The notes beneath the pieces are model-generated. The model saw nothing but the letters and a program-made list of their open reading frames with translations, made no database searches and was not told the origin of the DNA. This document shows, in pieces, positions 481 through 33,399 of a DNA stretch of 33,399 bases (position 1 is the stretch's first letter; every line of letters starts with the position of its first letter). The DNA comes from Stramenopiles sp. TOSAG23-3 (taxonomy: Eukaryota). The stretch covers positions 1 to 33,399 of the forward strand of contig LT642209.1 in assembly GCA_900128585.1 (NCBI GenBank). Direction: 5' to 3'. The translations under genes were made by a program, and so were the position numbers.

Positions 481-3400
481 ATGTATAAATTTCAACATTT
501 GGACACTCAATCACCGGCGAACGCCATTACTCTGTTTGGTAGAACGTTGGAAGGGAAAAGTATTGCCGCGCACGTACACGGCTTTCAACCAAGTCTGTAT
601 ATCAAAGTAGATGGGGATGCAGACACCTTAATGGCTCGTATCAATCATGCTTTAATTTGTTATTCATCGAGTCGCTTCATCCTACGTGACCCAACAAAAT
701 CGCAGAAAAATGTATCCCGTGCGTGTGAAAATGAGCGACATGCGTATTTTAAGGTTGTGTCCGGACAAGATATTACAGATTACAAAGAAGGCGACTGTCC
801 ACAATTTTTAAAGATCACAACGAAGGACAAGTGGTCATACAATGATTTAAAGGCCATTCTCACGCGCAAATGTGAGTATATTGTCTCGCAAAAGGTGAGC
901 AAGTGTGTTGACGGAATAATGCGCCTATTGAACATGAAATCCAAATACGCGGTTAACGTAGAGTTAAAGAAAGCAAAGAATTATATGTTGGGTCGGCCCT
1001 TTGTGATTTACAATGACCAAGTAGACTACGGACTGCAATACCTAATCGAGAAGGACATATACTCCTGTTCGTGGATGGAAGTTAAAGGGACACCTGTCGA
1101 AGAAAAATTAACGACCTGTGACATTGAGATCGATATAAGCGATATTCGCCAGATTCCATGCGATCAGGTTGCCCCATGGAGAATACTTTCCTATGACATT
1201 GAGTCGGTGCCACATCCACGCGGGAATGGAAAATTCGAATTTCCAAGCGCCGAACGCGATCCAGTATGCACTATTGGCGCTGTTCTACAGGTGAACGAGA
1301 AAGTGGACAAGTACGTTTGGATTCATTCTCCAAACGGTGATCCAATCGAAAAACTTACAGCCATAGAAAACCCACCAGATGAATACAATTCGGGCGACAT
1401 TGTAGTATACCATTTCGATAGCGAACTGGAGATGCTCAAGTCTTTCAATGAATTTATCGTCGAGAACGATATCGATATAATCGAAGGGTACAACACCGCA
1501 TTATTCGACCACCCGTACCTGTTCGACCGGTATGATACACTATGTGGGAACAAGCCCATATGGGGAAGGTTCTTGAATAGGAAATCGTACATCAAAGAAA
1601 AGGTATTTCAAAGCAATCAAGCTGGAAAAAACGTGACAAAGACCTTGTACTGCCCGGGCCGTATCGATCACGATGGGTACCAAGTGATGAAAAAGAACCA
1701 CAATTTGAATTCTTACAAGCTGGACGAAGTTGCTTTCACCTTCTTGGGAACGAAAAAGTATCCAATGGACTACAGTGAGATCTATCCAAAGTACCACACC
1801 AAAGAAGGACGCGACGAACTGGCAGTATACTGTGTGAAAGACGCATGGTTGACCAGAAAGGTTATGCACAAACTTAACAAGCTGTTCGTTTCTTTTCAAC
1901 TGGCCTGTGTTACAGGTATACCAATTAATGATGTCCTGAATCGTGGGCAAGGTATTCGGACTATTGCGCTTATGTTACGCTACTGTAAACGTCGAAGTCC
2001 GCCGTACTTTATTCCAAGGAGGGAGACGAAGGCGAAGTTCAAGAAGTTCAACGTTTTGACAAACGAGCTGGGAATTGCACAGAACAATGAGGAAGTGAGC
2101 GAAGGATTCCAAGGTGCTGTGGTATTAGAACCAAAGCCAAAGTTCTACAAGGATGCGATCGCAACGCTGGACTTTGCATCCTTGTACCCGTCCGTGATGA
2201 TTTCTATGAACATGTCGTATGAAACTATTGTATCAAGGGAAAAGATGTTAAAAATGGGATGGACAGAAGGGAATCAAGTTCGAACGGTACCAGATTATTC
2301 ATTTGTAGACGGTAGAATGAAAACAAAGATTAATTACGATACAAATGTTATTTTTGCAACGAAAGAGACTCGGGTGGGTATCATGCCTGAGATATTAGCT
2401 TCTCTGTGGGAAGAACGTAAACGGGTAAAAAAACAAATGAAGAAACACCATCCAGATACCGTTCAGTACAAAATCGCAAATGGTCGTCAACTTGGTCTCA
2501 AGGTCTGTATGAACTCTATCTACGGATTCACGGGGGCATCCGTTGGGTTTCTTCCGGAAAAACGCATTGCCGAAAGCGTTACGAAGTATGGTCGTGGTTT
2601 AACGTTAAAAACTCAAGATCTTATTGAAAATCATCCAGTGTGGGGAAAGCAACATGGTGTGAAGTGCGTATATGGCGATACGGACTCGGTATTCTGTCAC
2701 TTACCGCGTTCATTGTGCGATGGAGACACTCCAGAAGCTACTGTAAAACGAGCAGAGGAAATAGGAAGAGAAATGGGTGAATATGTAGACGCACACTTCT
2801 TACGTCCTATTGAATTGGAATTTGAAAAAATATACTTGCCATTTATGTTGTTGAAAAAGAAGCGCTATTGTGGAAAAAAATATGAAGAGGGTCATGTAAA
2901 AATTGACATGAAGGGAGTAGAATGCGTCCGAAGAGATTTCTGTCCTCTGCTGGTAAAAACTCAAAAGGAAATGCTCACGACATTGATGAACACCATGAAC
3001 GTTGAAAAAGCATGCAATATAGTCAGCAAAGCTGTGCAAGACTTGGTGTTAGGAAAAGTACCATTGGAGTTATTAACGATGAGTAAAAAATTATCGCGTT
3101 CACCTTGTGACTATAAAGTCAAGGGCGCACATGTCAACTTGGCGATGCGAATTAACAAGGAAAGAGGTGAACAGCATGGCTTCGTTGCTGGAGATCGCGT
3201 ACCATATGTAATAGCGAAAGGTTCGTCCAGTAAGGTGTCTGAAAATGCGGTGTTACCAGAAGAAATTACAAGTGGAAAATATGTGATTGATATCGAATAT
3301 TACAAAAACAAGCAACTGATACCGCCGATGCTACGAATATTGGAGAAATTATGCGACAACCCGAGGTCTCTCTTCCTTTGCAAGAGCATTAAGAAGCCAA

Positions 3401-3522
3401 GCATTACAGGAATGTTCAAAACGTGGGTAAAGAAGCGACCGCGGGAATCTGAGCCTGTTTTCAAGCCCAAAAAAATAGTGAAGAAAAGCAAGAAAACAAC
3501 ACTGTTTAATTTTTTTAAGTAG
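481..3522 (+). CDS. polB: Family B DNA polymerase (1013 aa), uninterrupted
   Basis: Exonuclease motifs SYDIES, GYN...FD, YCVKD; polymerase motifs LDFASLYPS, KVCMNSIYG, YGDTDS, KKRY; PIP-box-like C-terminus TTLFNFF and basic NLS-like tail. Confidence 0.98.
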   Translation: MYKFQHLDTQSPANAITLFGRTLEGKSIAAHVHGFQPSLYIKVDGDADTLMARINHALICYSSSRFILRDPTKSQKNVSRACENERHAYFKVVSGQDITDYKEGDCPQFLKITTKDKWSYNDLKAILTRKCEYIVSQKVSKCVDGIMRLLNMKSKYAVNVELKKAKNYMLGRPFVIYNDQVDYGLQYLIEKDIYSCSWMEVKGTPVEEKLTTCDIEIDISDIRQIPCDQVAPWRILSYDIESVPHPRGNGKFEFPSAERDPVCTIGAVLQVNEKVDKYVWIHSPNGDPIEKLTAIENPPDEYNSGDIVVYHFDSELEMLKSFNEFIVENDIDIIEGYNTALFDHPYLFDRYDTLCGNKPIWGRFLNRKSYIKEKVFQSNQAGKNVTKTLYCPGRIDHDGYQVMKKNHNLNSYKLDEVAFTFLGTKKYPMDYSEIYPKYHTKEGRDELAVYCVKDAWLTRKVMHKLNKLFVSFQLACVTGIPINDVLNRGQGIRTIALMLRYCKRRSPPYFIPRRETKAKFKKFNVLTNELGIAQNNEEVSEGFQGAVVLEPKPKFYKDAIATLDFASLYPSVMISMNMSYETIVSREKMLKMGWTEGNQVRTVPDYSFVDGRMKTKINYDTNVIFATKETRVGIMPEILASLWEERKRVKKQMKKHHPDTVQYKIANGRQLGLKVCMNSIYGFTGASVGFLPEKRIAESVTKYGRGLTLKTQDLIENHPVWGKQHGVKCVYGDTDSVFCHLPRSLCDGDTPEATVKRAEEIGREMGEYVDAHFLRPIELEFEKIYLPFMLLKKKRYCGKKYEEGHVKIDMKGVECVRRDFCPLLVKTQKEMLTTLMNTMNVEKACNIVSKAVQDLVLGKVPLELLTMSKKLSRSPCDYKVKGAHVNLAMRINKERGEQHGFVAGDRVPYVIAKGSSSKVSENAVLPEEITSGKYVIDIEYYKNKQLIPPMLRILEKLCDNPRSLFLCKSIKKPSITGMFKTWVKKRPRESEPVFKPKKIVKKSKKTTLFNFFK

Positions 3523-4043: not shown

Positions 4044-4715
4044 ATGAAGACCTGTACCAAATGCAACAAGAGCAAAGCGCTCACGGAGTTTTACAAGGAC
4101 TCTAGAAACAAGCGCGATGGACTGAAATTCCGATGCAAAGTGTGTGATAATGCCATTAAAAAGAAGTGGACCCAAAACAACCGGGAGAAACACAATACAT
4201 ACCTTAAGAAGTACTACCAAAACAACACGGAGAAATTCCGTGGATCAAGCAAGAAGTACCGCGAAAACAACCGAGAGAAATGCAATGCATTGAACAGGAA
4301 GAGGCAAAAACGCCCGGAAGTCCGGAAGAAAATTAATGCACGTAACAGGGAACGTAGAAAGACCGATTCACAGTTCAAGCTTAGAATGAATTTAAGCTCC
4401 CGCTTATGGCATGCACTCAAAGGCAAGGTCAAGAGTGCGAGTACCATGAAATTACTGGGCTGTTCGTACAAGCATGCAATGGAACATCTCGAAAAGCAGT
4501 TCCTTCCCGGAATGACATGGGATAACCATGGAAAATGGCACATCGATCATATGATGCCATGTAACTCCTTTGACCTGAGCGATCCCGAACAACAGAGACA
4601 ATGTTGTCATTACACCAATCTACAGCCCATGTGGGCATCGGAGAACATAAGCAAAGGAGATAGCATACTCTACAATCGTACATGGAATGGATGTAGATGG
4701 ATAAATACTATATAA
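4044..4715 (+). CDS. Free-standing HNH (homing-type) endonuclease with N-terminal CxxC..CxxC zinc finger
   Basis: ATG at 4044 in AAAATG context; CTKC...CKVC; HLEKQF..GMTWDNHGKWHIDHMMP...HYTNLQPMWASENISKG. Confidence 0.88.
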   Translation: MKTCTKCNKSKALTEFYKDSRNKRDGLKFRCKVCDNAIKKKWTQNNREKHNTYLKKYYQNNTEKFRGSSKKYRENNREKCNALNRKRQKRPEVRKKINARNRERRKTDSQFKLRMNLSSRLWHALKGKVKSASTMKLLGCSYKHAMEHLEKQFLPGMTWDNHGKWHIDHMMPCNSFDLSDPEQQRQCCHYTNLQPMWASENISKGDSILYNRTWNGCRWINTI

Positions 4716-11698: not shown

Positions 11699-12442
11699 AT
11701 GAAGTGCAAATTCACCGACTCAAAACAAATCTACGAAATATTCAAGTTTATCGCACAGTTTACAGATAATGTGAATCTGGTTTGTGGTGAAAATGGGATA
11801 AGTATATTTACGATGTCGTCCTGTCATACTGTGTTCGTAGACATGAATATGCCACAGAACTACTTCAAAGAGTACGAATGCACAGAAAGTTGCATTGTTG
11901 GTATATGTGTGCCTGTGTTACTTACTGCATTAACGAAAGCAAAATGTGACCTCAGCATGGAAGTAGTAGGAGATAAAGTGTTGTTTACACGCACAACCTC
12001 CGATGAAAGTATAAAATATTTGATCAAACAAATGAACATCGAAGACGACAACATGGAAATTCCATTGCTCCATGAAAACGTACATATGAAGGTCCCATAC
12101 GCTGTTTTGAAACGATGGAAAAAGTCCATACTGGATTTCACGAAATGCGGTGTAACCATTCGGCCGATGGCGGAGTGCGTGCACATAAGCAGCAAAGGCG
12201 ACGGTGGAGCAGTGGCCATGCAAACGCCCGTTCATTGCGACCACGTTACATATGTATCATTCAGTGATCCGTGCGAGATGACATTGGGAAATACCCTGTT
12301 AAGCAGAGGTATGAGTATTGGTGAGGTGAATCCTTCTGTAGAAATGGGTTACCAGAACGGTATGCCTTTTCGCATTGGTGTGAAACTCGGTGAAGGTTAC
12401 TTACAGGCATACATCGCCCCAAAATACTCTGATGACGAATAA
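11699..12442 (+). CDS. pcna: PCNA sliding clamp (divergent)
   Basis: About 247 aa; GISIFTMSSCHTVFVDM..YFKEYEC, and C-terminal G.LQAYIAPK. Confidence 0.88.
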   Translation: MKCKFTDSKQIYEIFKFIAQFTDNVNLVCGENGISIFTMSSCHTVFVDMNMPQNYFKEYECTESCIVGICVPVLLTALTKAKCDLSMEVVGDKVLFTRTTSDESIKYLIKQMNIEDDNMEIPLLHENVHMKVPYAVLKRWKKSILDFTKCGVTIRPMAECVHISSKGDGGAVAMQTPVHCDHVTYVSFSDPCEMTLGNTLLSRGMSIGEVNPSVEMGYQNGMPFRIGVKLGEGYLQAYIAPKYSDDE

Positions 12443-13054: not shown

Positions 13055-16000
13055 ATGGAAAAGTGGCAAGAAAGTATTGTCAAACGGTTTGTGAAAGAAA
13101 TTTCACTTACCAAACAGTTTACAGATTCTTTTGATGATTTTACACAATGCAGAGTAATGGAAATCATCTCGTTGATGAAGCCAATTAAGGCCCAAAGTCA
13201 AGACAACGCTATCACGCTCCGTCTTACAGGAGGGTCACTAAAGGCACCCATTATGCTCGAAAAGGATGGTACCGTTCGTCCCATCATGCCAAATGAATGC
13301 CGCACCAGAAATCTTACCTATTCTAGTCCATTGTACGTCGATATCCACGTTGAACGCCAAAAGGGAGAGAATACAGTCCTTCGTGATGTGTACATGGGCC
13401 GAATTCCCGTCATGGTATTTTCATCTCTATGTCACCTGTACGATAAAACGAAGCGTGTACCGAACGGGGAGTGCGATAAAGACCCCGGTGGTTATTTTAT
13501 TGTGAATGGCAATGAAAAATCCTTGGTCGGGCAAAAATCCTCTATGCACAATCGTATGATTACGTATTTTAAAAACGGGGTTTCAGCTTGTGCTGTGAAA
13601 TCAGAACGTAACAAACGTGTTCATGTTACTACTTTAAAATTCAAGGACAACACACCGATCAGCTGTACATTTCCGCGCTTGGAGGAAGAAATACCTGCCT
13701 TTACTTTGTTAATAGCAATGGGTATCAAAGTGGAGGAGATAAGGTCTGTATTCTCTACAGAAGAAAATGCATGTTTGGAAGCATCGTATAGAAATCTACC
13801 AGAGAGTGTTGAAGAGGCACGTTCCAAAATTAAAATTCGCGAAGTGTATAATGTTGGTCTTACGGAAAACGAACGTTTGGAGAATGCATTTCAAAATGTG
13901 CTCATACCGCACATGAAAGAAAACAAAGCTGTCTTTATCGTAGCGATGATAAAAGAATTATTGGCCGTCGCCACGGGTCAAATAAACCCGACAGACAGAG
14001 ACTCTGTGGCGAATCAGCGTGTAGAAACCTCCTCTACCCTCTTGTCTACGCTCTTTCTTCATTTGATCATTAAGCTTTGCAATGATATCAAGCTATTGTG
14101 TCAAAAGTCTCTTCCGAAGCTGAAACGCGGTATTACAGATGAAAAAATTCGATCGTGGCTGGCAAAGTCCAACACCATCACAGACGGTCTCCAATATTCG
14201 CTTGCAACAGGCAATTGGAATACCACTTTTGTAGACCGACAACAGCGTTGTGGGGTTGCACAAGCTCTACAGCGTTTGACATACATCAGCACTATTTCCC
14301 AATTGCGTAGGGTTTCATCTGCTGTAGACAAGACCCAAAAATTACCCAAACCGCGTTATTTGCATGGATCACACTGGGGGCGTTATTGTCCAGCGGAGAC
14401 ACCAGAGGGTGGACCATGTGGGCTAGAGACACAGCTTACTGTTCAATCGTACATATCGCTAAAACGTACCCCACAGGCCATTCGAAGAGTAATAAATCAA
14501 TACTTTTTGCCAACCTTTGACTTGAAACATACGATGGTCTTCATGAACGGCATATTGGAGGGCTGCACCAAAGATGCGATCAATTTGGTAAAAACTGTTC
14601 GGTATGCCAGACGTTCCGGTCAATTCGACAAAGATATTTCCGTCACGCACAAACCTTGGCGGCAGCAAATTCATATTTCGACTACTTCTGGTAGGATATG
14701 CAGACCATTACTGATCGTTGAAAACGGTGAGTGCGTGTATAAGAAGACCAAAGATGCAGATACCATGTCATTTCAGCAATTGATGTGTGAGGGCGTCATA
14801 GAATATCTCGACTGTGAAGAGGAAGACATAGCTCTGGTAGCTTTCTTTACAAAAGATATTACTAAAAGGCATACTCACTGTGAAATAAGCAACGCAATGA
14901 TGAACGGTTTATGTGCAGCCACCATTCCGTTTTCCGATCGTAATCCCGGTACAAGAAATACCTATCAATGTGCCATGGCAAAACAGGCTCAGGGGGTGAA
15001 CGCGTCTAACTTTCAGTTAAGAATGGACACCACCACCAATATTATGTGGTATGGTCAAAAGCCTCTGGTAACGACCGACTTGGCAAACGAATACGGTGTG
15101 CACGAACTCCCAACTGGTACTAACGCCATTGTTGCCATCATGTGCTATGAATCCTTTAACCAAGAGGATTCCATTATTGTAAATCAATCTGCATTGGACC
15201 GAGGCTTTGCCAGAGCAGATACATACAAAACCATCAAAGAGTCGTTAAGTGGAAAGGACAAATCCGTGTTCCAACGCCCTATAAAACGAAGAAGAGTCGG
15301 CAAATACAACAGTCTTGAAGAAGATGGAATGCTACGACCCGGCGTTACCGTCAAAACAGGCGATTGTATTATCGGAAAAGTTACATACGGAAAGAACACG
15401 AAAGAGGACAATTCGAAAATGGCGTCGTTTCCCGGAATGGTGGACAAAGTAACCATGTACCAAGAACGAAACGGTGACAAAGCAGTCAAAGTTAGAGTAC
15501 GACAAACACGTATTCCAGTCATTGGGGATAAATTTTCAAGTCGGCACGGACAAAAAGGCACTGTTGGAATGCTGTACCAACAAGAAGATATGCCCTATGA
15601 TATCGATGGTATTGTACCGGACATAATTATAAACCCCCATGCGATCCCGTCGCGTATGACCATTGGGCATTTGGTGGAATGTTTGACTGGTCAGGTAGGG
15701 TCACTAAAAGGTCTGATCGGAGACGCTTCGCCATTCAATGGTAGAAAAGTAGAAGATATTATGAACGAGTTGAAGCAAGCCGGGTTTAAACCTACAGGGG
15801 AAAAACAGCTATACTCAGGCTTTACCGGAAAACCCATCAAAGCCAAAATATTCATGGGTCCTACGTACTATCAGCGCTTGAAGCATATGGTAAATGACAA
15901 GATTCACGCACGAGGCAGAGGTCGAAGAAATCAATTGACACATCAACCAAATGACGGTCGCTCCAACGGTGGTGGTTTGAGAGTAGGTGAGATGGAGAAA

Positions 16001-16171
16001 GACTCGTTCAATGCACATGGTGTACCATTTGTTATTAACGAAAGAATGTGTATTTCGTCGGACGCGCATGAAATCACAGTGAAGGGAAAGAAGGTTACTA
16101 TACCGTACGCGGCAAAATTGTTGATAGATGAATTGCAAAGTATGTGTATTAAAGTAGACTTAAAAGTTTAG
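13055..16171 (+). CDS. rpb2: DNA-directed RNA polymerase second-largest subunit (RPB2-like, 1038 aa)
   Basis: DPGGYFIVNGNEK, LATGNW, CPAETPEGGPCGL, NQEDS, GDKFSSRHGQKG, INPHAIPSRMTIG, YYQRLKHMVNDK, GGLRVGEME. Confidence 0.98.
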   Translation: MEKWQESIVKRFVKEISLTKQFTDSFDDFTQCRVMEIISLMKPIKAQSQDNAITLRLTGGSLKAPIMLEKDGTVRPIMPNECRTRNLTYSSPLYVDIHVERQKGENTVLRDVYMGRIPVMVFSSLCHLYDKTKRVPNGECDKDPGGYFIVNGNEKSLVGQKSSMHNRMITYFKNGVSACAVKSERNKRVHVTTLKFKDNTPISCTFPRLEEEIPAFTLLIAMGIKVEEIRSVFSTEENACLEASYRNLPESVEEARSKIKIREVYNVGLTENERLENAFQNVLIPHMKENKAVFIVAMIKELLAVATGQINPTDRDSVANQRVETSSTLLSTLFLHLIIKLCNDIKLLCQKSLPKLKRGITDEKIRSWLAKSNTITDGLQYSLATGNWNTTFVDRQQRCGVAQALQRLTYISTISQLRRVSSAVDKTQKLPKPRYLHGSHWGRYCPAETPEGGPCGLETQLTVQSYISLKRTPQAIRRVINQYFLPTFDLKHTMVFMNGILEGCTKDAINLVKTVRYARRSGQFDKDISVTHKPWRQQIHISTTSGRICRPLLIVENGECVYKKTKDADTMSFQQLMCEGVIEYLDCEEEDIALVAFFTKDITKRHTHCEISNAMMNGLCAATIPFSDRNPGTRNTYQCAMAKQAQGVNASNFQLRMDTTTNIMWYGQKPLVTTDLANEYGVHELPTGTNAIVAIMCYESFNQEDSIIVNQSALDRGFARADTYKTIKESLSGKDKSVFQRPIKRRRVGKYNSLEEDGMLRPGVTVKTGDCIIGKVTYGKNTKEDNSKMASFPGMVDKVTMYQERNGDKAVKVRVRQTRIPVIGDKFSSRHGQKGTVGMLYQQEDMPYDIDGIVPDIIINPHAIPSRMTIGHLVECLTGQVGSLKGLIGDASPFNGRKVEDIMNELKQAGFKPTGEKQLYSGFTGKPIKAKIFMGPTYYQRLKHMVNDKIHARGRGRRNQLTHQPNDGRSNGGGLRVGEMEKDSFNAHGVPFVINERMCISSDAHEITVKGKKVTIPYAAKLLIDELQSMCIKVDLKV

Positions 16172-22754: not shown

Positions 22755-23378
22755 TTATTTTGCACCGGATTTTAACGGTGGATGATCGTAATCCACGGAT
22801 CTACCTTCTGCAAACTGCATGTTGTCGTCTTTAAGCTTGTATTTGTGGCTAAGATTGTCCACGTAAGCTTTTAATTTCTCTTCTTTTTTGTTTTTTGGTT
22901 CCCATGTATTGAAACTGGTTACCAATTCGTGCGTCTCTTGAACGAATGGGATAGAGGGCGAAGCAGGTCGAAATGGCTCACCTTCCTCGTCTGGTACGAT
23001 GAAATCGCTCATATCCTCTTCCTCTTGATCCATAGGAACTTCATCAAACTCACCAGTAGGAAGTGACACTTCGTCTGGAACGCTGTCGTTCAACGAAAGA
23101 AATGTATTCTCCGTCAATGGACGAAACCCAAGTTGTCGGAAGCACTCGACTGCTTTTTCTTTGATCAATGGAATATGTTCCATAACACAATTCCGATGAC
23201 ATGTGTTCCACTCGTCGTCATACTTCCAAACCCAACGATTGTCTTTGCATCGATTGATATAAAATACTTCCAAGAGACCTTCTTCGTCTATACCAACCAT
23301 TTCTTCGTCTATACCAACCATTTCAGCGTACCAGACGCCAGATTCTCCGTTTATTTTTAGCAAATCGCCTTCCTTCAT
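22755..23378 (-). CDS. Hypothetical acidic protein
   Basis: Likely ATG 23378 (MKEGDL); acidic MSDFIVPDEE motif; contains an in-frame 21-bp duplication. Confidence 0.72.
   Translation of the reverse strand: MKEGDLLKINGESGVWYAEMVGIDEEMVGIDEEGLLEVFYINRCKDNRWVWKYDDEWNTCHRNCVMEHIPLIKEKAVECFRQLGFRPLTENTFLSLNDSVPDEVSLPTGEFDEVPMDQEEEDMSDFIVPDEEGEPFRPASPSIPFVQETHELVTSFNTWEPKNKKEEKLKAYVDNLSHKYKLKDDNMQFAEGRSVDYDHPPLKSGAK
23280..23324. repeat. Perfect 21-bp tandem duplication (EMVGIDE x2)
   Basis: TTCTTCGTCTATACCAACCAT at 23280 and 23301. Confidence 0.9.
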
Positions 23379-24785: not shown

Positions 24786-25481
24786 TTATACCACAGTTTT
24801 CAAGATTGACTGTATTTGTGTACCAAACTGAGCTTGGTTTTGAATAAAAGCTATCTCGGTCTCGTTCAATCGAAACTTTGTGCCTTCATACTGTTTTCTT
24901 AAGTAATCCTTCAACTCGGCTACATTATTTGCACCATATACTTTCGGTAATTTCTTAGCAAGTACACCGCCTGCCATAGTGTCTTGTTCTAAAATATCGT
25001 CCAGTAAGGCCAATTCTAGGCGAATCAAATTGTCCAATTTGTCCGGCCAAAAGCAAAACATCATCCACCTTGACTTTTCGAACAATGGAACCAACCGACT
25101 GTCAATTCGATGGGGTTTCTTCATCAAACGTGCTCTCCATACCAAATCTTGCTGTATGTCACGCACAGTCCATCGTACGCGCTGGTAAGGACCCCACAAC
25201 GTGTACTTCACAGTAATAGTAGACTCTACCGTAAACTCGTCCAACGCAAAAGTACCACATCGATCGCATATTCCCATTGCGTACATGTTCCCATCGCGCT
25301 TGTACAGTAATCCTATTGGCAACTTACCTTTATCGTCCACTACCACACAGTCCTCGTCTGTTATTTGCATGCATGACGTGATAGACTTACCATACAAGGA
25401 CTTAAAACGTTTTCGAATATTGGACACCGTGCATATAAACGGACGAATCTCCTTGTCCAGTGATTTTCGGAAAGAAGGCAT
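24786..25481 (-). CDS. Hypothetical protein
   Basis: Likely ATG 25481 (MPSFRK); track extension upstream overlaps the kinase. Confidence 0.65.
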   Translation of the reverse strand: MPSFRKSLDKEIRPFICTVSNIRKRFKSLYGKSITSCMQITDEDCVVVDDKGKLPIGLLYKRDGNMYAMGICDRCGTFALDEFTVESTITVKYTLWGPYQRVRWTVRDIQQDLVWRARLMKKPHRIDSRLVPLFEKSRWMMFCFWPDKLDNLIRLELALLDDILEQDTMAGGVLAKKLPKVYGANNVAELKDYLRKQYEGTKFRLNETEIAFIQNQAQFGTQIQSILKTVV

Positions 25482-25514
25482 CTTTAGTATATATAATCTA
25501 ATAAATACTAAGAA

Positions 25515-26462
25515 ATGGATCTTGAAGATTATGCAAAAGTTATTAGACGATCTATCGATCCTTATCGAAATGAATATGGGTGTAGAAACACGCTTCGAGT
25601 TTTTGTAAGTAGGTTGATGCGTAAAAAAACTTACCCCCCGTGGATGCAACCCTTGAATTTCCCGGCAAAGAAATGCTTCGCTGGACGGTACAAACAAGTA
25701 TATGTGTACGACAATTACGCAATAGCTATTAGCAGGGAAACAATGGATGTAGGTTCTTTGAAATCGAAATTTGAAAAAATCAACGAGAAGATACCTAATT
25801 CCTTAAACTACCCGGAAGAAACCTTCAAAATAGGTGGATACCACGTGGCAAAATTAAGGAAATGTTCGGATACTTTAGTAGATGTTCTTATTTCTGGTCG
25901 GCAGGGTTGGGAATCCCAGATGGTACAGTTGGGAGGTGCTTTGCGGAAACTTCACAATAATAATATAGTATTATCCGATATTAAAACGGACAATATTTTA
26001 GTTTGTGGTAATACACTATCGTTTGGTGATATTGACGACGCCTATGATCTAACAAAGAGCATAACGTACAACAGATTTACACCCCCTTACAATCTAAAAC
26101 TATACTGGGACGAGTACCGTACAGGACCAAGTTCAAATCCGTTGGAAGTTAAACATATGCAATTTCTGGACTGGTATGCGTTTGGTTACTGTGTGCTATT
26201 GTCATGTAAAACCGATGGTTATAGTGGGGTAATATTAAACAGCGCAATTGACTGCATAAATGCTAACATACCCTTTCGAATGCGTTTAGACGAGACAAAA
26301 TACAAAAAAGCAAACATACACCCTGTTGTACGCACATGTTGCGACTGGATGCTACTGTCAAGTGGACGATACATTAGTCCAACACCAATGGCAAAATTCT
26401 TTAAACAGAAGAAAAAGCGAGCTGTTACGGTATTCAGTTACAAATGGAACTTAAAATATTAA
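25515..26462 (+). CDS. Divergent Ser/Thr protein kinase-like protein
   Basis: FAGRYKQVY (Gly-loop-like), LH...IVLSDIKTDNIL, FGDID, DWYAFG. Confidence 0.8.
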   Translation: MDLEDYAKVIRRSIDPYRNEYGCRNTLRVFVSRLMRKKTYPPWMQPLNFPAKKCFAGRYKQVYVYDNYAIAISRETMDVGSLKSKFEKINEKIPNSLNYPEETFKIGGYHVAKLRKCSDTLVDVLISGRQGWESQMVQLGGALRKLHNNNIVLSDIKTDNILVCGNTLSFGDIDDAYDLTKSITYNRFTPPYNLKLYWDEYRTGPSSNPLEVKHMQFLDWYAFGYCVLLSCKTDGYSGVILNSAIDCINANIPFRMRLDETKYKKANIHPVVRTCCDWMLLSSGRYISPTPMAKFFKQKKKRAVTVFSYKWNLKY

Positions 26463-26499
26463 ATTATGCAGTATATAAATGATTTATATTTAAATAAAA

Positions 26500-27131
26500 A
26501 TGCAAATATTGTAAGTTCGTTTTCCGTTCACTCTCTCCATACAGTACACGACTAACATTTTTACAGCGTCAAAACATTAACTGGGAGTAAGTATACATCA
26601 CAGAAGTCTAATAAACACACATTTCATACTAACAATATATTTAGAAACTATAACACTCGATGTCGAACCGACGGACACGGTAGAAAACATTAAAAACAAA
26701 ATCCAAGACAAAGAAGGTAAGTAAATTGTCATAATTCATACTTAATGAAATTTAGTCTAACAAATTTGATAGGTATTCCTCCTGACCAACAAGTAAGTTT
26801 TTGATACATATTTTCCATTATTAAATACACACTAACACCTATATAGCGTCTCATCTTTGCTGGAAAAGTAAGTAAAATCCGTTAAAATTATCTCGTATAC
26901 ACATTACTAACATGTTAAACAGCAACTGGAAGACGGGCGAACCTTGAGCGACTACAACAGTACGTATTTCCGCACAACAACCTATTATATTACTTTAAAT
27001 TACTAACACTTTAACAGTCCAAAAAGAGGCGACATTAGTAAGTACACATCGATGACTCAGATTACGAAATATTCATACTAACAAACCTACAGCATCTCGT
27101 ACTCAGACTTCGCGGCGGTGGTTTTATTTGA
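26500..27131 (+). CDS. ubi: Ubiquitin, 8 exons / 7 spliceosomal introns (not in track)
   Basis: join(26500-26510,26567-26586,26645-26716,26773-26792,26847-26867,26923-26959,27018-27037,27093-27131) gives [79 protein letters not shown]. Confidence 0.97.
26511..26566 (+). other. Ubiquitin intron 1 (56 nt, phase 2)
   Basis: GTAAGT...ACTAAC...CAG. Confidence 0.95.
26587..26644 (+). other. Ubiquitin intron 2 (58 nt, phase 1)
   Basis: GTAAGT...TACTAAC...TAG. Confidence 0.95.
26717..26772 (+). other. Ubiquitin intron 3 (56 nt, phase 1)
   Basis: GTAAGT...TCTAAC...TAG. Confidence 0.95.
26793..26846 (+). other. Ubiquitin intron 4 (54 nt, phase 0)
   Basis: GTAAGT...ACTAAC...TAG. Confidence 0.95.
26868..26922 (+). 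other. Ubiquitin intron 5 (55 nt, phase 0)
   Basis: GTAAGT...TACTAAC...CAG. Confidence 0.95.
26960..27017 (+). other. Ubiquitin intron 6 (58 nt, phase 1)
   Basis: GTACGT...TACTAAC...CAG. Confidence 0.95.
27038..27092 (+). other. Ubiquitin intron 7 (55 nt, phase 0)
   Basis: GTAAGT...TACTAAC...CAG. Confidence 0.95.
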
Positions 27132-27659
27132 TTTTCGAATATTATCTATTCTCCACATAGGTTGCAGATTCGAATAATGAAAACATTTTAATTGATCTTC
27201 TGGTTTCGCCATATCAAAACTGGAACATGGGATCACATGATCTATGTCCCATAAGCGTATATTATCCCATGACATACCATTAATAAATTTACTTTCTAAA
27301 TGTTTGCACAATTCTTCTATTGTACAACCTGTATATTTCAACGTAGATGTACATTTTTTCCCACCATAAGTTGTCACTGCTTCCCTTGTTCTATTTCTCA
27401 ATCTAGTTAAAATTCGAAATCTCGTATCAGTTTTGTAACGACGATTCATGTAGTTACGTTTATACTCTTTCCATTTCGGAGTTTTACGATACACCGTACT
27501 TCTTTTGTTCCACGCAATTTTATGGGTTGTATAATTTTTCTTATTTTGCTTTTTCATGCATGGCTTACACTGTGTTTGTTTTCCATCTGGTTTCCGTTTG
27601 TTATTATAAAACTCGCTATAATCCATACTTAAATTACACCCTCCGCACAATTTTTTCAT
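27087..27659 (-). CDS. HNH (homing-type) endonuclease, antisense to and overlapping ubiquitin exon 8
   Basis: CGGC...[52 protein letters not shown]; same family as 4044-4715; TAAATG start with TATA-rich upstream. Confidence 0.9.
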   Translation of the reverse strand: MKKLCGGCNLSMDYSEFYNNKRKPDGKQTQCKPCMKKQNKKNYTTHKIAWNKRSTVYRKTPKWKEYKRNYMNRRYKTDTRFRILTRLRNRTREAVTTYGGKKCTSTLKYTGCTIEELCKHLESKFINGMSWDNIRLWDIDHVIPCSSFDMAKPEDQLKCFHYSNLQPMWRIDNIRKSNKTTAAKSEYEML

Positions 27660-27738
27660 TTACAACATAAATTATTACCTTTATAGTATAAAAAATAAAG
27701 AGGCCACGTTGCACCTCGTACTCAGACTTCGCGGCGGT
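27096..27738 (+). repeat. 24-bp perfect direct repeat flanking the HNH gene
   Basis: CTCGTACTCAGACTTCGCGGCGGT at 27096-27119 and 27715-27738. Confidence 0.95.
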
Positions 27739-27747
27739 AAATATTAA
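27697..27747 (+). pseudogene. Intronless duplicate of the ubiquitin 3' end ([16 protein letters not shown])
   Basis: AAA GAG GCC ACG TTG CAC CTC GTA CTC AGA CTT CGC GGC GGT AAA TAT TAA; spans the intron-7 position with no intron. Confidence 0.9.
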
Positions 27748-27814
27748 ATATTATAAAATATCCATTGTTTTATAAACACATTTCAACATATAAATATTAC
27801 AAGTAATAGAGTAA

Positions 27815-28042
27815 ATGATTAAAATATACAAACCAAAGGGTAAAATAGAGTATACTGTACACGGAAAGTCTATGTTTTTCTTGCAAGATGGGATTTATTA
27901 CTTAAAGAAACCAATTGAGAAGCGTTTCTACAACGGTATGACGTGGGATAATTACGGAACCATTTGGAAAATTCGCACCCAGCGTAAAATTGGCGCGTTT
28001 TCGTTTGGACTAAACGGCAAACCTGAAATGTTGGGTATATAA
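27815..28042 (+). CDS. Small protein containing a fragment of the same HNH family
   Basis: IEKRFYNGMTWDNYGTIWKI aligns with LEKQFLPGMTWDNHGKWHI / LESKFINGMSWDNIRLWDI but lacks DH and the rest of the catalytic motif. Confidence 0.6.
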   Translation: MIKIYKPKGKIEYTVHGKSMFFLQDGIYYLKKPIEKRFYNGMTWDNYGTIWKIRTQRKIGAFSFGLNGKPEMLGI

Positions 28043-28063
28043 GTACTTTTAATCTCTTAAAAC

Positions 28064-28329
28064 ATGTTTAAACTGCTCATTTTACTCTTATGCATCTTCT
28101 ACGCGCACGCGGGCTACGAATGTAGCTCTCCAACCGACTGTATTGTTACCTGTTCCAACTTTAAAGGCAAAGTTCCTAAACCGTGGATTGTTGTTCCATG
28201 GTCAAATGGGTCATGTAAGTAAATATTCTCTATTTCTTTTTTCGTTCGTTTTCTAACACAATTACAGGTTATTTCCATAATACCGATACACGAGAAGACC
28301 GGGACTCTCTCCCTAACCTACGTCATTAA
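28064..28329 (+). CDS. Spliced 70-aa protein: signal peptide plus WW-like domain (not in track)
   Basis: join(28064-28214,28268-28329); intron 28215-28267 GTAAGT...TTCTAAC...CAG (53 nt); MFKLLILLLCIFYAHAG...VPKPWIVVPWSNGSCYFHNTDTREDRDSLPNLRH*; GTATATAAG 29 nt upstream. Confidence 0.8.
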
Positions 28330-28742
28330 ATTGCGAGTATAAGCAAAATACAGCACCAAGCGTTCCAAATGGCCAACGACAACGACACTGGATGGTCGAT
28401 GGACGTATACGATATACTAAAGAGAATACAGAATACTAAATAATATACTGCTGCCCCAAATGTAATGTACATATTACCAACCGTTCGTAATACATGGTCG
28501 CTCTCTCTATAGTAATCGTCTAAATCCCGTGGTAATAACCAGAATCGGGTGTACCAAAACATACCAAGTGTCATGAACACTGCATAGCAAATGAAAAGAG
28601 CTTGGTTCCATCCGGTCGTGTCGTGGGCGACTTCTATACCGCGAAGAACAGTGTAAACTTTTCCAGCATAGTTCATTTGGACCACATGCCGAAGAAAGAA
28701 TTTCTTGTTGGGCCAGCTGATAAATTTATTTGCAATTGACAT
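28326..28742 (-). CDS. Membrane protein (about 3 TM)
   Basis: 138-aa ORF with hydrophobic helices. Confidence 0.68.
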   Translation of the reverse strand: MSIANKFISWPNKKFFLRHVVQMNYAGKVYTVLRGIEVAHDTTGWNQALFICYAVFMTLGMFWYTRFWLLPRDLDDYYRESDHVLRTVGNMYITFGAAVYYLVFCILFSISYTSIDHPVSLSLAIWNAWCCILLILAI

Positions 28743-28785
28743 TTGTTATTATAAAAGATACATTTATACAACAAAATCACCTAAA

Positions 28786-29313
28786 ATGTCTTTATCTCTT
28801 ATAATTGGTTGTATGTTTAGCGGAAAAAGCACAGAGCTTATACGTCTCGTAAATCGGTACAAGAGTATCGGAAAAAGCATTCTGACCATCAATCACTCAC
28901 TAGACCAACGTTATTCTAGCAATATGATTGTATCCCATTCTGGAAGCAAAGTCGCTGCTATGCAAACCAACATTCTACCGGCGGAAGTAGACGATTATGA
29001 CATCATTGCTATTGATGAGGGGCAGTTTTTCACTGATTTGGTCACTAAAGTATTGGAGTACGTTGAAACGCACAATAAGATGGTCATTGTCGCCGGACTA
29101 TCGGGCGATTTTCAGCGTAGACCGTTTGGTAATATTCTACAACTTGTTCCATTGTGTGACAAGTTATGGATGTCAGTTGCTTATTGTTCTGTTTGTAAAG
29201 ATGGTACTAAAGCGTCCTTCACCAAACGTCTTTCAAACAGCACAGAGCAAATTGCAGTCGGCGAGGCAGATCAATACGTTGCAGTGTGTAGAAAGTGCTA
29301 CATCAAGGTATAA
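28786..29313 (+). CDS. tk: Thymidine kinase (type II / TK1-like)
   Basis: GCMFSGKSTELIR, IAIDEGQFF, VAGLSGDFQRRPFG, CSVC...YVAVCRKCY. Confidence 0.96.
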   Translation: MSLSLIIGCMFSGKSTELIRLVNRYKSIGKSILTINHSLDQRYSSNMIVSHSGSKVAAMQTNILPAEVDDYDIIAIDEGQFFTDLVTKVLEYVETHNKMVIVAGLSGDFQRRPFGNILQLVPLCDKLWMSVAYCSVCKDGTKASFTKRLSNSTEQIAVGEADQYVAVCRKCYIKV

Positions 29314-32664: not shown

Positions 32665-33399
32665 ATGTTCTTCGGTCTTCCATTCCCTAACATACTACTT
32701 GATTTAATATTCCACCTCGGTATCAATGTAACTGCTGTGATACTCCTACTAATGAACTACACGGACCACAACGACATTAAAGAATTCTCGGTTCCAAGTA
32801 CCCTGAATGCAGCGGCGCTTGCATTTGCGATTGGTGGATCTCTCATCAGTCTCGTTAACATCTTTGGAGAAGGATTCAGTAGCACAAAACAGCGTCTCGA
32901 GAACGACTACTTTAACCTGTTGCGTAACCTTCTGACGTCTTTCACCTTTGTGTTGTCATGTATGCTAAATGCATCGGAGGCACGAGACAATACACGAATT
33001 GTCATGTGGCTCATGGTCGGACAACGAATGCTAGACATGTGTTTGGATGTGGATACGCCTTGGACACTCGTGTGCGACAACATGAAATCCCTTGAGGACG
33101 ACGTTGTGAAAAATTCAAGCATGTTGAACGGTGGTCTCTACCTAATGAAACAGATCCTTGTAATTCTCTGCTTTATCGGTACCCTTGTTTTCCAAGGCAT
33201 CTACGCGGGTGTTCACAATCTTGGAGAAGAGGAAACTGGCGACGACGAAATATATCAATACATGATCTTTGCCTTGGTAGGTCTTCATTTGGCCTTGGTA
33301 CTTTTGAGTATACTTATTGAAAATGGTTGGTATAGACGAAGAAGGTCTCTTGGAAGTATTTTATATCAATCGATGCAAAGACAATCGTTGGGTTTGGAA
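32665..33399 (+). CDS. Multi-pass membrane protein, truncated by window end (not in track)
   Basis: ATG 32665 (MFFGLPFPNILLDL...) stays open for 245 codons to the end; GTATATAAG 28 nt upstream. Confidence 0.8.
   Translation, partial: MFFGLPFPNILLDLIFHLGINVTAVILLLMNYTDHNDIKEFSVPSTLNAAALAFAIGGSLISLVNIFGEGFSSTKQRLENDYFNLLRNLLTSFTFVLSCMLNASEARDNTRIVMWLMVGQRMLDMCLDVDTPWTLVCDNMKSLEDDVVKNSSMLNGGLYLMKQILVILCFIGTLVFQGIYAGVHNLGEEETGDDEIYQYMIFALVGLHLALVLLSILIENGWYRRRRSLGSILYQSMQRQSLGLE

Follow-up and report, generated by a model that had tools for sequence, protein, structure and literature searches.

A viral ubiquitin gene with seven spliceosomal introns, a probable hot spot of homing and recombination

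Why should one short viral gene be crowded with spliceosomal introns while the large replication and transcription genes of the same DNA have none? The question is raised by 33,399 nucleotides (nt) from Stramenopiles sp. TOSAG23-3 (contig LT642209.1 of GenBank assembly GCA_900128585.1, positions 1 to 33,399 of the forward strand; this whole stretch is hereafter the window), in which a viral ubiquitin gene is divided into eight exons. An earlier note, drawn from the letters of the sequence, had read intron gain as focused on this gene and had supposed that the introns leave few contiguous stretches of the length that a typical homing endonuclease site, or recombination with host or other viral ubiquitin genes, would require. 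We consider it probable that this expressed gene of a mirusvirus-like virus is a hot spot of homing and recombination, at which spliceosomal introns without open reading frames (ORFs) spread and accumulate.

Joined by script, the eight exons (Table 1) give a coding sequence (CDS) of 240 nt with an open frame of 79 codons, in which G-F-I and a stop come after the 76 residues of ubiquitin; this bears out the gene model of the earlier note down to its exon lengths and to the 20–21 nt of four of the six internal exons. The introns are uniform in their signals: 6/7 begin with GTAAGT and 1/7 with GTACGT, 7/7 end in YAG, and all seven carry [AT]CTAAC with the branch A 11–12 nt upstream of the terminal AG, at a G+C content of 21–39% against 42.5% in the exons. 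A strict pattern built from these signals (GTA[AC]GT, 25–60 nt, CTAAC, 6–12 nt, AG) occurs eight times on the plus strand of the 33.4-kb window and never on the minus strand, compared with a mean of 0.57 and a maximum of 3 in 200 shuffles of the window. Seven of these eight lie inside ubiquitin and the remaining one, at 28215–28267, is the single other intron that the earlier note had found. The seven-intron gene is confirmed as lying far beyond chance expectation. An Rfam search of 26300–28400 with E values up to 1 matched no family, which argues against a group I or II self-splicing intron in this interval; ribozyme introns are also far longer than 54–58 nt. The seven introns are U2-type spliceosomal micro-introns.

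The contrast with the large genes, which the earlier note had drawn, stands within the window: polB (481–3522) is a single ORF matching positions 1–452 of 453 of Pfam DNA_pol_B (E 2.9e-105), and RPB2 (13055–16171) is a single ORF with seven Rpb2 Pfam domains end to end. It does not extend beyond the window, since the related polB gene on L003 has an intron. Transcription offers no obvious reason for the difference either. A special promoter for ubiquitin was considered and ruled out, as the gene has the common element near −26 that is also found at polB and other ORFs: TATA[AT]A starts 25–28 nt 5′ of the ATG in 26 of the 48 ORFs of the window, polB and ubiquitin included, and nothing suggests that ubiquitin alone is transcribed differently. 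The uniform form of this element, (A)GTATA[AT]A, upstream of the 26 ORFs implies very short leaders; RPB2 is without it.

Transcripts assembled from seawater support the gene model. Part of the interval 25500–28500 is contained in 20 public runs from 15 studies, whose labels, where given, are marine or seawater; six are RNA runs, and contigs (not raw reads) from four of these were placed on 25400–28900. Six of the seven ubiquitin junctions are joined in these metatranscriptome contigs. Junction 2 is joined in an X12 contig, junctions 3 and 4 in one X12 contig in which the 17 letters in between are the end of exon 4, junction 5 in both X11 and X12, and junctions 6 and 7 in one 274-nt X11 contig (record 5) that runs from exon 6 through exon 7 into exon 8. 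This last contig is identical to 27093–27309, reaching 178 nt beyond the stop into the virus-specific 3′ flank. The joined contigs carry the window's own exon haplotype, which numerous synonymous differences in exons 4–6 set apart from those of the related alleles L014 and L015, so that the joined forms are best read as spliced RNA of the seven-intron allele itself. The view that this gene depends on splicing is thus upheld by the spliced RNA contigs.

Several other joints were set aside. The joint 28215/28270, seen in X11, X17 and X18, was dropped as proof of splicing of the eighth intron because it equals the DNA of the intronless L014 and L015. Three further joints (X11 26719/26845, X12 26719/26850 and X18 26717/26921) come from other ubiquitin genes, their letters differing from the window's exons, and the depth over exon 6 (up to 471) likewise derives from other ubiquitin genes and is not usable as an expression level.

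Related viral alleles, with which the earlier note had proposed a comparison, show that the intron set is young. They were sought in metagenomes with a degenerate pattern of exon 2 and both its splice sites, which gave eight matches, five of them viral alleles and three due to chance (L013, L016 and L017). In the viral contigs of IMG/VR, two exon-flank patterns, this exon-2 double junction included, found no match; a pattern search for the intron after CDS nt 144 returned G005 and four chance matches, nothing else. All seven positions of the window are occupied in L012, an allele from another assembly. L014 has four introns (CDS nt 11, 31, 103 and 201), L015 three (nt 11, 31 and 181) and L010/L011 two (nt 11 and 31); L008, which is contig G005, has three at nt 26, 101 and 144, and G004 and G002 have none. 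In total, nine intron positions are used in the 228 coding nt of this series, with zero to seven introns per allele. The most direct comparison is that of G005 with G004: the two are 92.7% identical over 30 kb, yet three introns and a homing endonuclease are present in G005 only. Intron density over whole contigs, taken from three relatives, repeats the picture. The strict pattern occurs three times in G005 (83.6 kb), always in ubiquitin, and not once in G004 (84 kb) or G002 (179 kb), so the focus on ubiquitin proposed from the window (7/8) is repeated in a second, independent lineage (3/3).

At the intron 1 site, L014 and L015 carry introns 96–98% identical to that of the window and L010/L011 an intron at the same site without clear sequence likeness; intron 2 is again 96–98% identical in L014 and L015. 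At the intron 3 site, L014 has a 64-nt intron at background likeness (65.6%), and L008 has one 2 nt away. Intron 4 (nt 123) occurs only in the window/L012 allele. Intron 6 is identical at 54/55 aligned positions in L015 and absent from L014; intron 7 is identical at 55/55 in L014 and absent from L015 and from a further allele, record 28 of the RNA run X18, which has intron 6 and the endonuclease flank described below. The eighth intron of the window, outside ubiquitin, is shared with L012 but missing from L014 and L015 at the DNA level, which makes a second presence/absence polymorphism of introns in the same strains. The ubiquitin intron set varies between strains and turns over rapidly.

The alleles are also mosaic. 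Introns 1, 2, 6 and 7 are 96–100% identical among the window, L014 and L015, whereas the gene upstream of ubiquitin is only 80% (L014) and 63% (L015) identical to that of the window, exons 5, 6 and 8 are 70–95% identical, and mismatches cluster where intron content differs. With the same sequences occurring as intron 6 without 7 (L015), 7 without 6 (L014) and both (window), the alleles must have recombined. Identity between the window and L012 over 26370–27723 was considered as the sign of a sweep and rejected, other stretches being identical too.

One intron is common to distant lineages. Intron 5 is identical at 53/55 positions to the L008/G005 intron at nt 144, in genes whose CDS is 75% identical and whose synonymous third positions agree at 33/72. 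Measured against that third-position rate, the binomial probability of the intron identity is 5e-16, or 7e-12 when the fixed splice signals are left out, and the best blastn match of the window to the whole of G005 is the intron 5 spot. The L008/G005 exons that flank it, on the other hand, resemble those of its sister G004 more than those of the window. The intron either passed from one virus to another or reached both from a common source. The supposition that introns hinder recombination is not borne out by the mosaic alleles or by this near-identity across lineages, both of which point to spreading rather than blocking.

What could have made this gene a place of exchange is suggested by its 3′ end. 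A free-standing gene for an endonuclease of the HNH (His-Me finger) type lies there on the opposite strand, its last ~15 codons antisense to exon 8, and the X11 contig described above (record 5) is antisense across the last ~220 nt of this ORF (27093–27309), which implies a tail-to-tail overlap of messages. The gene is present in the window, L012 and X18 record 28 and absent from L014 and L015. Downstream of it stands a displaced native 3′ end of ubiquitin, so that the HNH cassette is placed between the functional end of the gene and a remnant. Whereas the functional ubiquitin of HNH-bearing alleles ends in G-G-G-F-I, the L012 remnant ends in G-G-F-S-I-stop and is identical at 54/57 positions to the 3′ end of the HNH-less L015. 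On the simplest reading of these sequences, a cassette comprising the HNH gene and a substitute for the ubiquitin 3′ end, which starts near codon 64 and includes intron 7, would have entered a resident gene inside what is now the 20-nt exon 7, pushing the native end downstream. In the window, 24 nt of the remnant (27715–27738) are identical to exon 8 at 27096–27119 and the tail differs from that of L012, a sign that one copy may have converted the other. The L014 allele resembles a recombinant of the two ubiquitin 3′ copies, with intron 7 kept, the HNH gene lost and a native-type tail.

The predicted HNH protein matches phrog_1035, 'endonuclease VII' (E 6.4e-17), and phrog_2255, 'HNH endonuclease' (E 1.5e-4), and has a D-H...N-L-Q-P...D-N motif of which D140, H141, N164 and N173 are invariant between it and three homologues. 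Pfam HNH_4 remained below its cut-off of 22 (8.4 bits, E 2.8), a sequence search of PDB with the protein gave no match, and a search of viral contigs for loci related to it found no relative. The earlier note's link to homing endonucleases is strengthened by this cassette and by G005 (L008), where a minus-strand ORF of 216 residues at L008 3274–3921 occupies the HNH slot behind ubiquitin and matches PHROG 'homing endonuclease' families (E 1.2e-21), one of them with a GIY-YIG motif (E 2.5e-6); Pfam had no name for this ORF. A free-standing endonuclease gene thus stands beside an intron-bearing ubiquitin gene in the window and L012 (HNH) and in L008 (GIY-YIG type). In L014, the HNH slot between the ubiquitin stop and the conserved 75-amino-acid (aa) gene is taken up by ~330 nt of unrelated, G+C-rich inserted DNA that contains a small ORF on the minus strand. 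The interval downstream of ubiquitin is a general hot spot of insertion.

The 75-aa gene itself, found behind ubiquitin in all relatives, is a decayed HNH fragment without the catalytic part: the two families align by hhalign with a probability of 96.5% (E 8.9e-10), over HNH residues 114–151. It is 81% identical in G004 and G005, compared with about 70% for polB, and L010/L011 encode it as an in-frame fusion with ubiquitin; this decayed HNH gene may have been put to new use. Within the window, the HNH gene has a paralogue directly behind polB (36% identity by tblastn, E 2e-31; phrog_1035, E 1.5e-23), and in G004 an HNH homologue adjoins the terminase gene. HNH nucleases seem to settle beside the most conserved genes (ubiquitin, polB and terminase).

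We extended the comparison to the 80 best other viral ubiquitin loci. Directly downstream of them are two HNH homologues and one GIY homologue; at L044, L112 and L053 an endonuclease homologue (of GIY-YIG type in L053) stands beside an intronless ubiquitin gene. The strict pattern found no intron at these loci in 444 kb, but a ranking by match favours unbroken genes, all 80 being intronless, so that the set is biased as a test of association between introns and endonucleases.

The virus can be placed through its relatives. Proteins 68–72% identical to the polB product of the window occur on four IMG/VR contigs, and closer ones (98%, 83% and 82%) in other collections; the order ubiquitin, 75-aa gene, thymidine kinase is common to the window, G002 and G004. 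Three relatives were examined: G002 (179 kb with direct terminal repeats), G004 (84 kb) and G005 (83.6 kb). All three have an ORF of 606–634 aa matching Terminase_6N above the Pfam cut-off, that of G004 also matches the ATPase of T4 gp17 (E 0.006), and polB and ubiquitin share a contig with the terminase gene in G004. A capsid profile of the nucleocytoplasmic large DNA viruses (NCLDV) matched none of the three, in a weak search in which control genomes were silent too, and A32 ATPase gave no match above the cut-off in these contigs, which are 26–50% complete; the window has no nameable virion gene. An NCLDV-like module of replication and transcription together with a terminase of tailed-phage or herpes type is the signature of Mirusviricota. 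The terminase, together with the polB and RNA polymerase module, in the relatives therefore speaks for a mirusvirus-like virus rather than a nucleocytovirus, most likely an uncultured marine lineage that keeps polB and RNA polymerase. Published 'Demutovirales' likewise keep the replication and transcription modules, are poor in introns (0.042 introns per kb) and have the branch consensus WCTAAC (Medvedeva et al., PMC12768974). The branch motif of the window's introns matches that consensus.

Two relatives have further peculiarities in polB. In L003 (about 12214–12278), the spliceosomal-type intron, GTAAGT...CACTAAC...CAG, splits the catalytic motif between YGD and TDS. Inteins and group I introns favour the same YGDTDS spot. 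The match to the G002 polB gene (L002 10001–14167) spans 4167 nt, compared with 3042 nt in the window; several polB homologues have the intein domain PF14890, and an intein or other insert is likely in G002 polB. At the window end, 79 nt (33321–33399) are identical, reversed, to L012 352–430, which aligns with about 23224–23302 of the window, where the window and L012 differ; sites in G004 and G005 match this stretch at 80.6% identity, and it may be a small repeated element.

Table 1 Features of the ubiquitin locus and related genes in the window
Feature	Position	Strand	Length	Details
Second HNH endonuclease gene (paralogue)	4044..4715	+		Directly behind polB; tblastn, phrog_1035
TATA-like promoter element AGTATATAAA	26470..26479	+		26–28 nt 5′ of ubiquitin ATG
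Ubiquitin gene	26500..27131	+		8 exons, 7 introns; splicing by script, RNA contigs
Ubiquitin exons 1–4	26500–26510, 26567–26586, 26645–26716, 26773–26792	+	11, 20, 72, 20 nt	
Ubiquitin exons 5–8	26847–26867, 26923–26959, 27018–27037, 27093–27131	+	21, 37, 20, 39 nt	
Intron 1	26511..26566	+	56 nt	After CDS nt 11, phase 2
Intron 2	26587..26644	+	58 nt	After CDS nt 31, phase 1
Intron 3	26717..26772	+	56 nt	After CDS nt 103, phase 1
Intron 4	26793..26846	+	54 nt	After CDS nt 123, phase 0
Intron 5	26868..26922	+	55 nt	After CDS nt 144, phase 0
Intron 6	26960..27017	+	58 nt	After CDS nt 181, phase 1; GTACGT
Intron 7	27038..27092	+	55 nt	After CDS nt 201, phase 0
HNH (His-Me finger) endonuclease gene, free-standing	27087..27659	-	190 aa	PHROG match and motif
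Displaced native ubiquitin 3′ end	27697..27747	+		Codons 63–76 and K-Y-stop; no start, no intron
Conserved gene, decayed HNH fragment	27815..28042	+	75 aa	Behind ubiquitin in all relatives; without catalytic part
Small gene, signal-peptide-like protein	28064..28329	+		Carries the eighth intron (28215–28267, 53 nt)

We postulate the following course of events for this probable hot spot. The host spliceosome must remove seven introns from the viral ubiquitin message, presumably in the nucleus. Free-standing homing endonuclease genes insert at the ubiquitin 3′ end, and their products, presumably active, would cleave ubiquitin alleles that lack such a gene when viruses co-infect; mending of the break on the donor template would then copy the cassette and nearby DNA, as with T4 MobE, and in this way drive the transfer of introns. 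ORF-less spliceosomal introns would be exchanged between co-infecting genomes, distant ones included. Since ubiquitin is probably still similar enough in nucleotides between divergent co-infecting viruses for homing or gene conversion, introns gained anywhere could spread sideways and collect there. A stronger form of this idea is tentative, and we would not yet rely on it: the ORF-less spliceosomal introns may be passengers of homing, carried along between co-infecting and even distantly related mirusviruses when breaks made by endonucleases aimed at ubiquitin, polB and terminase are repaired, with introns that split a recognition site being favoured and an arms race piling introns up in the most conserved gene.

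Several points weigh against the hot-spot proposal. The association of introns with endonuclease genes is loose, as L014, L015 and L010/L011 have introns without an endonuclease gene and L044, L112 and L053 the reverse. Intron 5, given the G004-like exons that flank it in G005, appears to have moved almost alone, a poor fit to long co-conversion tracts. The evidence from RNA consists of contigs, and the same runs also hold unspliced ubiquitin contigs; junction 1 was not seen in the contigs of the four RNA runs, as is expected for a first exon of only 11 nt. Membership in the mirusviruses is derived from relatives and not from the window itself. Finally, the proposal does not account for the first origin of each intron. 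The introns have no convincing mutual likeness (the best of 28 pairs, 2 and 7, reaches z 2.65, with an uncorrected p of 0.017), and boundary repeats are absent in 16/19 introns, both of which speak against introners of transposon type and fit clean insertion or exact recombination.

An unlikely alternative is that selection keeps the introns because they break up endonuclease sites or stretches for recombination, in a spliceosomal counterpart of collaborative homing. Endonuclease genes do target ubiquitin, and the cassette junction, at about codons 63/64, falls in the 20-nt exon 7, where intron 6 ends 6 nt to the 5′ side and intron 7 starts ~10 nt to the 3′ side; there is also a precedent in cyanophage S-PM2, in which the free-standing endonuclease F-CphI, encoded next to a group I intron, is kept from cutting by that intron (PMC6083498). 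However, all four combinations exist: X18 record 28 has the HNH gene with intron 6 but not intron 7, L014 intron 7 without the HNH gene and L015 intron 6 without it. Introns 1–5 sit 60–190 coding nt from the junction, and the mosaic alleles and the lineage-crossing intron mean that recombination is not prevented.

It is similarly improbable that the introns are independent de novo gains, by reverse splicing or some unknown intron-generating element, with the endonucleases having no role. The clean insertions (16/19 introns without boundary repeats) and the polymorphic intron of the same type in another small gene agree with such gains, and their concentration in ubiquitin could be understood if this were an early, highly expressed message with a passage through the nucleus of the host, in which introns do no harm or help; Medvedeva et al. 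indeed suggest that the introns of the intron-poor demutoviruses are in early genes (PMC12768974). But the TATA-like element of ubiquitin at −26 is the same as that of polB and marks no separately transcribed class, and independent gains cannot yield 53/55 identity at the same site in two lineages.

Capture from the host seems to us quite unlikely, in its simple form and also in the form of repeated short patches of gene conversion instead of the taking of a whole host ubiquitin gene. Its rationale is that no viral gene but ubiquitin would be close enough in sequence to a host gene to recombine with it. Paralogous host genes would account for unrelated introns at one site or within 2 nt of it (nt 103 in the window and L014, nt 101 in L008), synonymous differences form a patchwork in the middle of the CDS, and two distant viruses could each have taken a near-identical intron 5 from one host gene. 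Against this, relatives have intronless orthologues at the same place, and every viral allele departs from ordinary ubiquitin in the same way at residues 16 and 65, the difference at 65 being kept in exon 7, which has 20 nt and is flanked by introns 6 and 7. Introns of this kind are also present in the polB gene of L003 and in the small gene at 28064–28329, for which one search, covering part of it, matched no known family. Seven introns in 228 nt are also far denser than is usual in cellular genes, which we count against a host source. The case that the earlier note had named as telling for simple capture, a cellular ubiquitin gene with the same intron positions, was not found among the eight metagenome matches of the exon-2 double-junction scan, which covers little eukaryotic DNA.

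It is hardly credible that the window represents an endogenized virus decaying within a eukaryotic chromosome, with introns that mark its assimilation: introns of nucleocytoviruses are mostly reported from endogenous elements (PMC12768974), but here the ORFs are dense and intact with uniform promoters, introns occur in two genes only, spliced transcripts exist, near-identical DNA is present in the runs of 15 studies and a relative has direct terminal repeats.

The hot-spot reading has precedents in parts, the closest being in mirusviruses, for which spliceosomal introns and intron-borne homing endonucleases ('shintrons') are published (Medvedeva et al., Nat Microbiol 2025, PMC12768974). The resemblance is extensive. 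There as here, an NCLDV-like polB and RNA polymerase are combined with a terminase in marine viruses, introns are GT-AG with WCTAAC, their positions vary between close relatives, and they are enriched in conserved genes and linked to HNH or GIY-YIG endonucleases. Unlike in shintrons, however, the endonuclease gene here is free-standing, beyond the stop and in the reverse orientation, and none of the introns, of 54–58 nt, contains an ORF; they interrupt ubiquitin instead of a virion gene, at a density of seven in 240 coding nt where the intron-poor lineage of that paper has 0.042 per kb. Its main text, in the accessible portion, does not mention ubiquitin introns, which its Supplementary Table 4 may list, nor does that portion contain a near-identical intron crossing lineages or a cassette with a displaced 3′ end. 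New with respect to the published mirusvirus work are the ORF-less micro-introns, the free-standing cassette with its displaced 3′ end and the cross-lineage intron, all at ubiquitin.

Free-standing endonucleases that act on neighbouring introns are familiar from phages. In the collaborative homing of S-PM2 (F-CphI and the psbA group I intron, PMC6083498), as at this locus, a free-standing His-Me/HNH endonuclease gene stands beside a conserved gene with ORF-less introns. In T4, the free-standing HNH gene mobE mobilizes the neighbouring nrdB intron in trans (PMC2790892), and an intron could ride in the same way on endonuclease-induced gene conversion here. Both phage systems concern self-splicing group I introns, unlike the seven host-dependent spliceosomal introns of ubiquitin, for which homing is inferred from sequence.

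The architecture of the cassette has its nearest parallels in Allomyces atp6 and in Glomus atp6, atp9, cox2 and nad3, where a core gene is followed by a foreign C-terminus, an endonuclease ORF and a native remnant that is closer to the gene of relatives than the inserted copy is (PMC3630166), as is the remnant here to L015. Those cases are mitochondrial and involve LAGLIDADG or GIY-YIG endonucleases; the present one is in a eukaryotic virus, with an opposite-strand HNH gene and a C-terminus containing a spliceosomal intron. Introners, too, bring rapid, strain-specific intron gain to marine microbes, and viruses have been proposed as their vectors (PMC12166617); in contrast to them, the ubiquitin introns form no family of near-identical copies within the gene, and 16/19 introns have no target-site duplication. 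Our literature searches found no paper joining viral ubiquitin, homing endonuclease and intron, or a giant-virus ubiquitin gene and spliceosomal introns, and nothing useful on intron positions in cellular ubiquitin genes.

By what route spliceosomal introns arise and spread has long been asked, and recent gains are rarely caught in the act. The ubiquitin locus provides a tractable natural allele series, with 0, 2, 3, 4 or 7 introns at nine positions in 228 nt, and the spread of spliceosomal introns by homing or gene conversion becomes directly testable where an intron has crossed lineages and candidate nucleases stand next door. Gene callers that ignore introns will overlook a seven-intron ubiquitin gene. 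For the viruses concerned, a mirusvirus lineage with polymerases of its own still passes at least one message through the host spliceosome. If the more tentative idea of introns as passengers of homing is true, the locus would show how spliceosomal introns can spread horizontally in nature at the level of DNA, and collaborative homing would for the first time be seen to involve the spliceosome.

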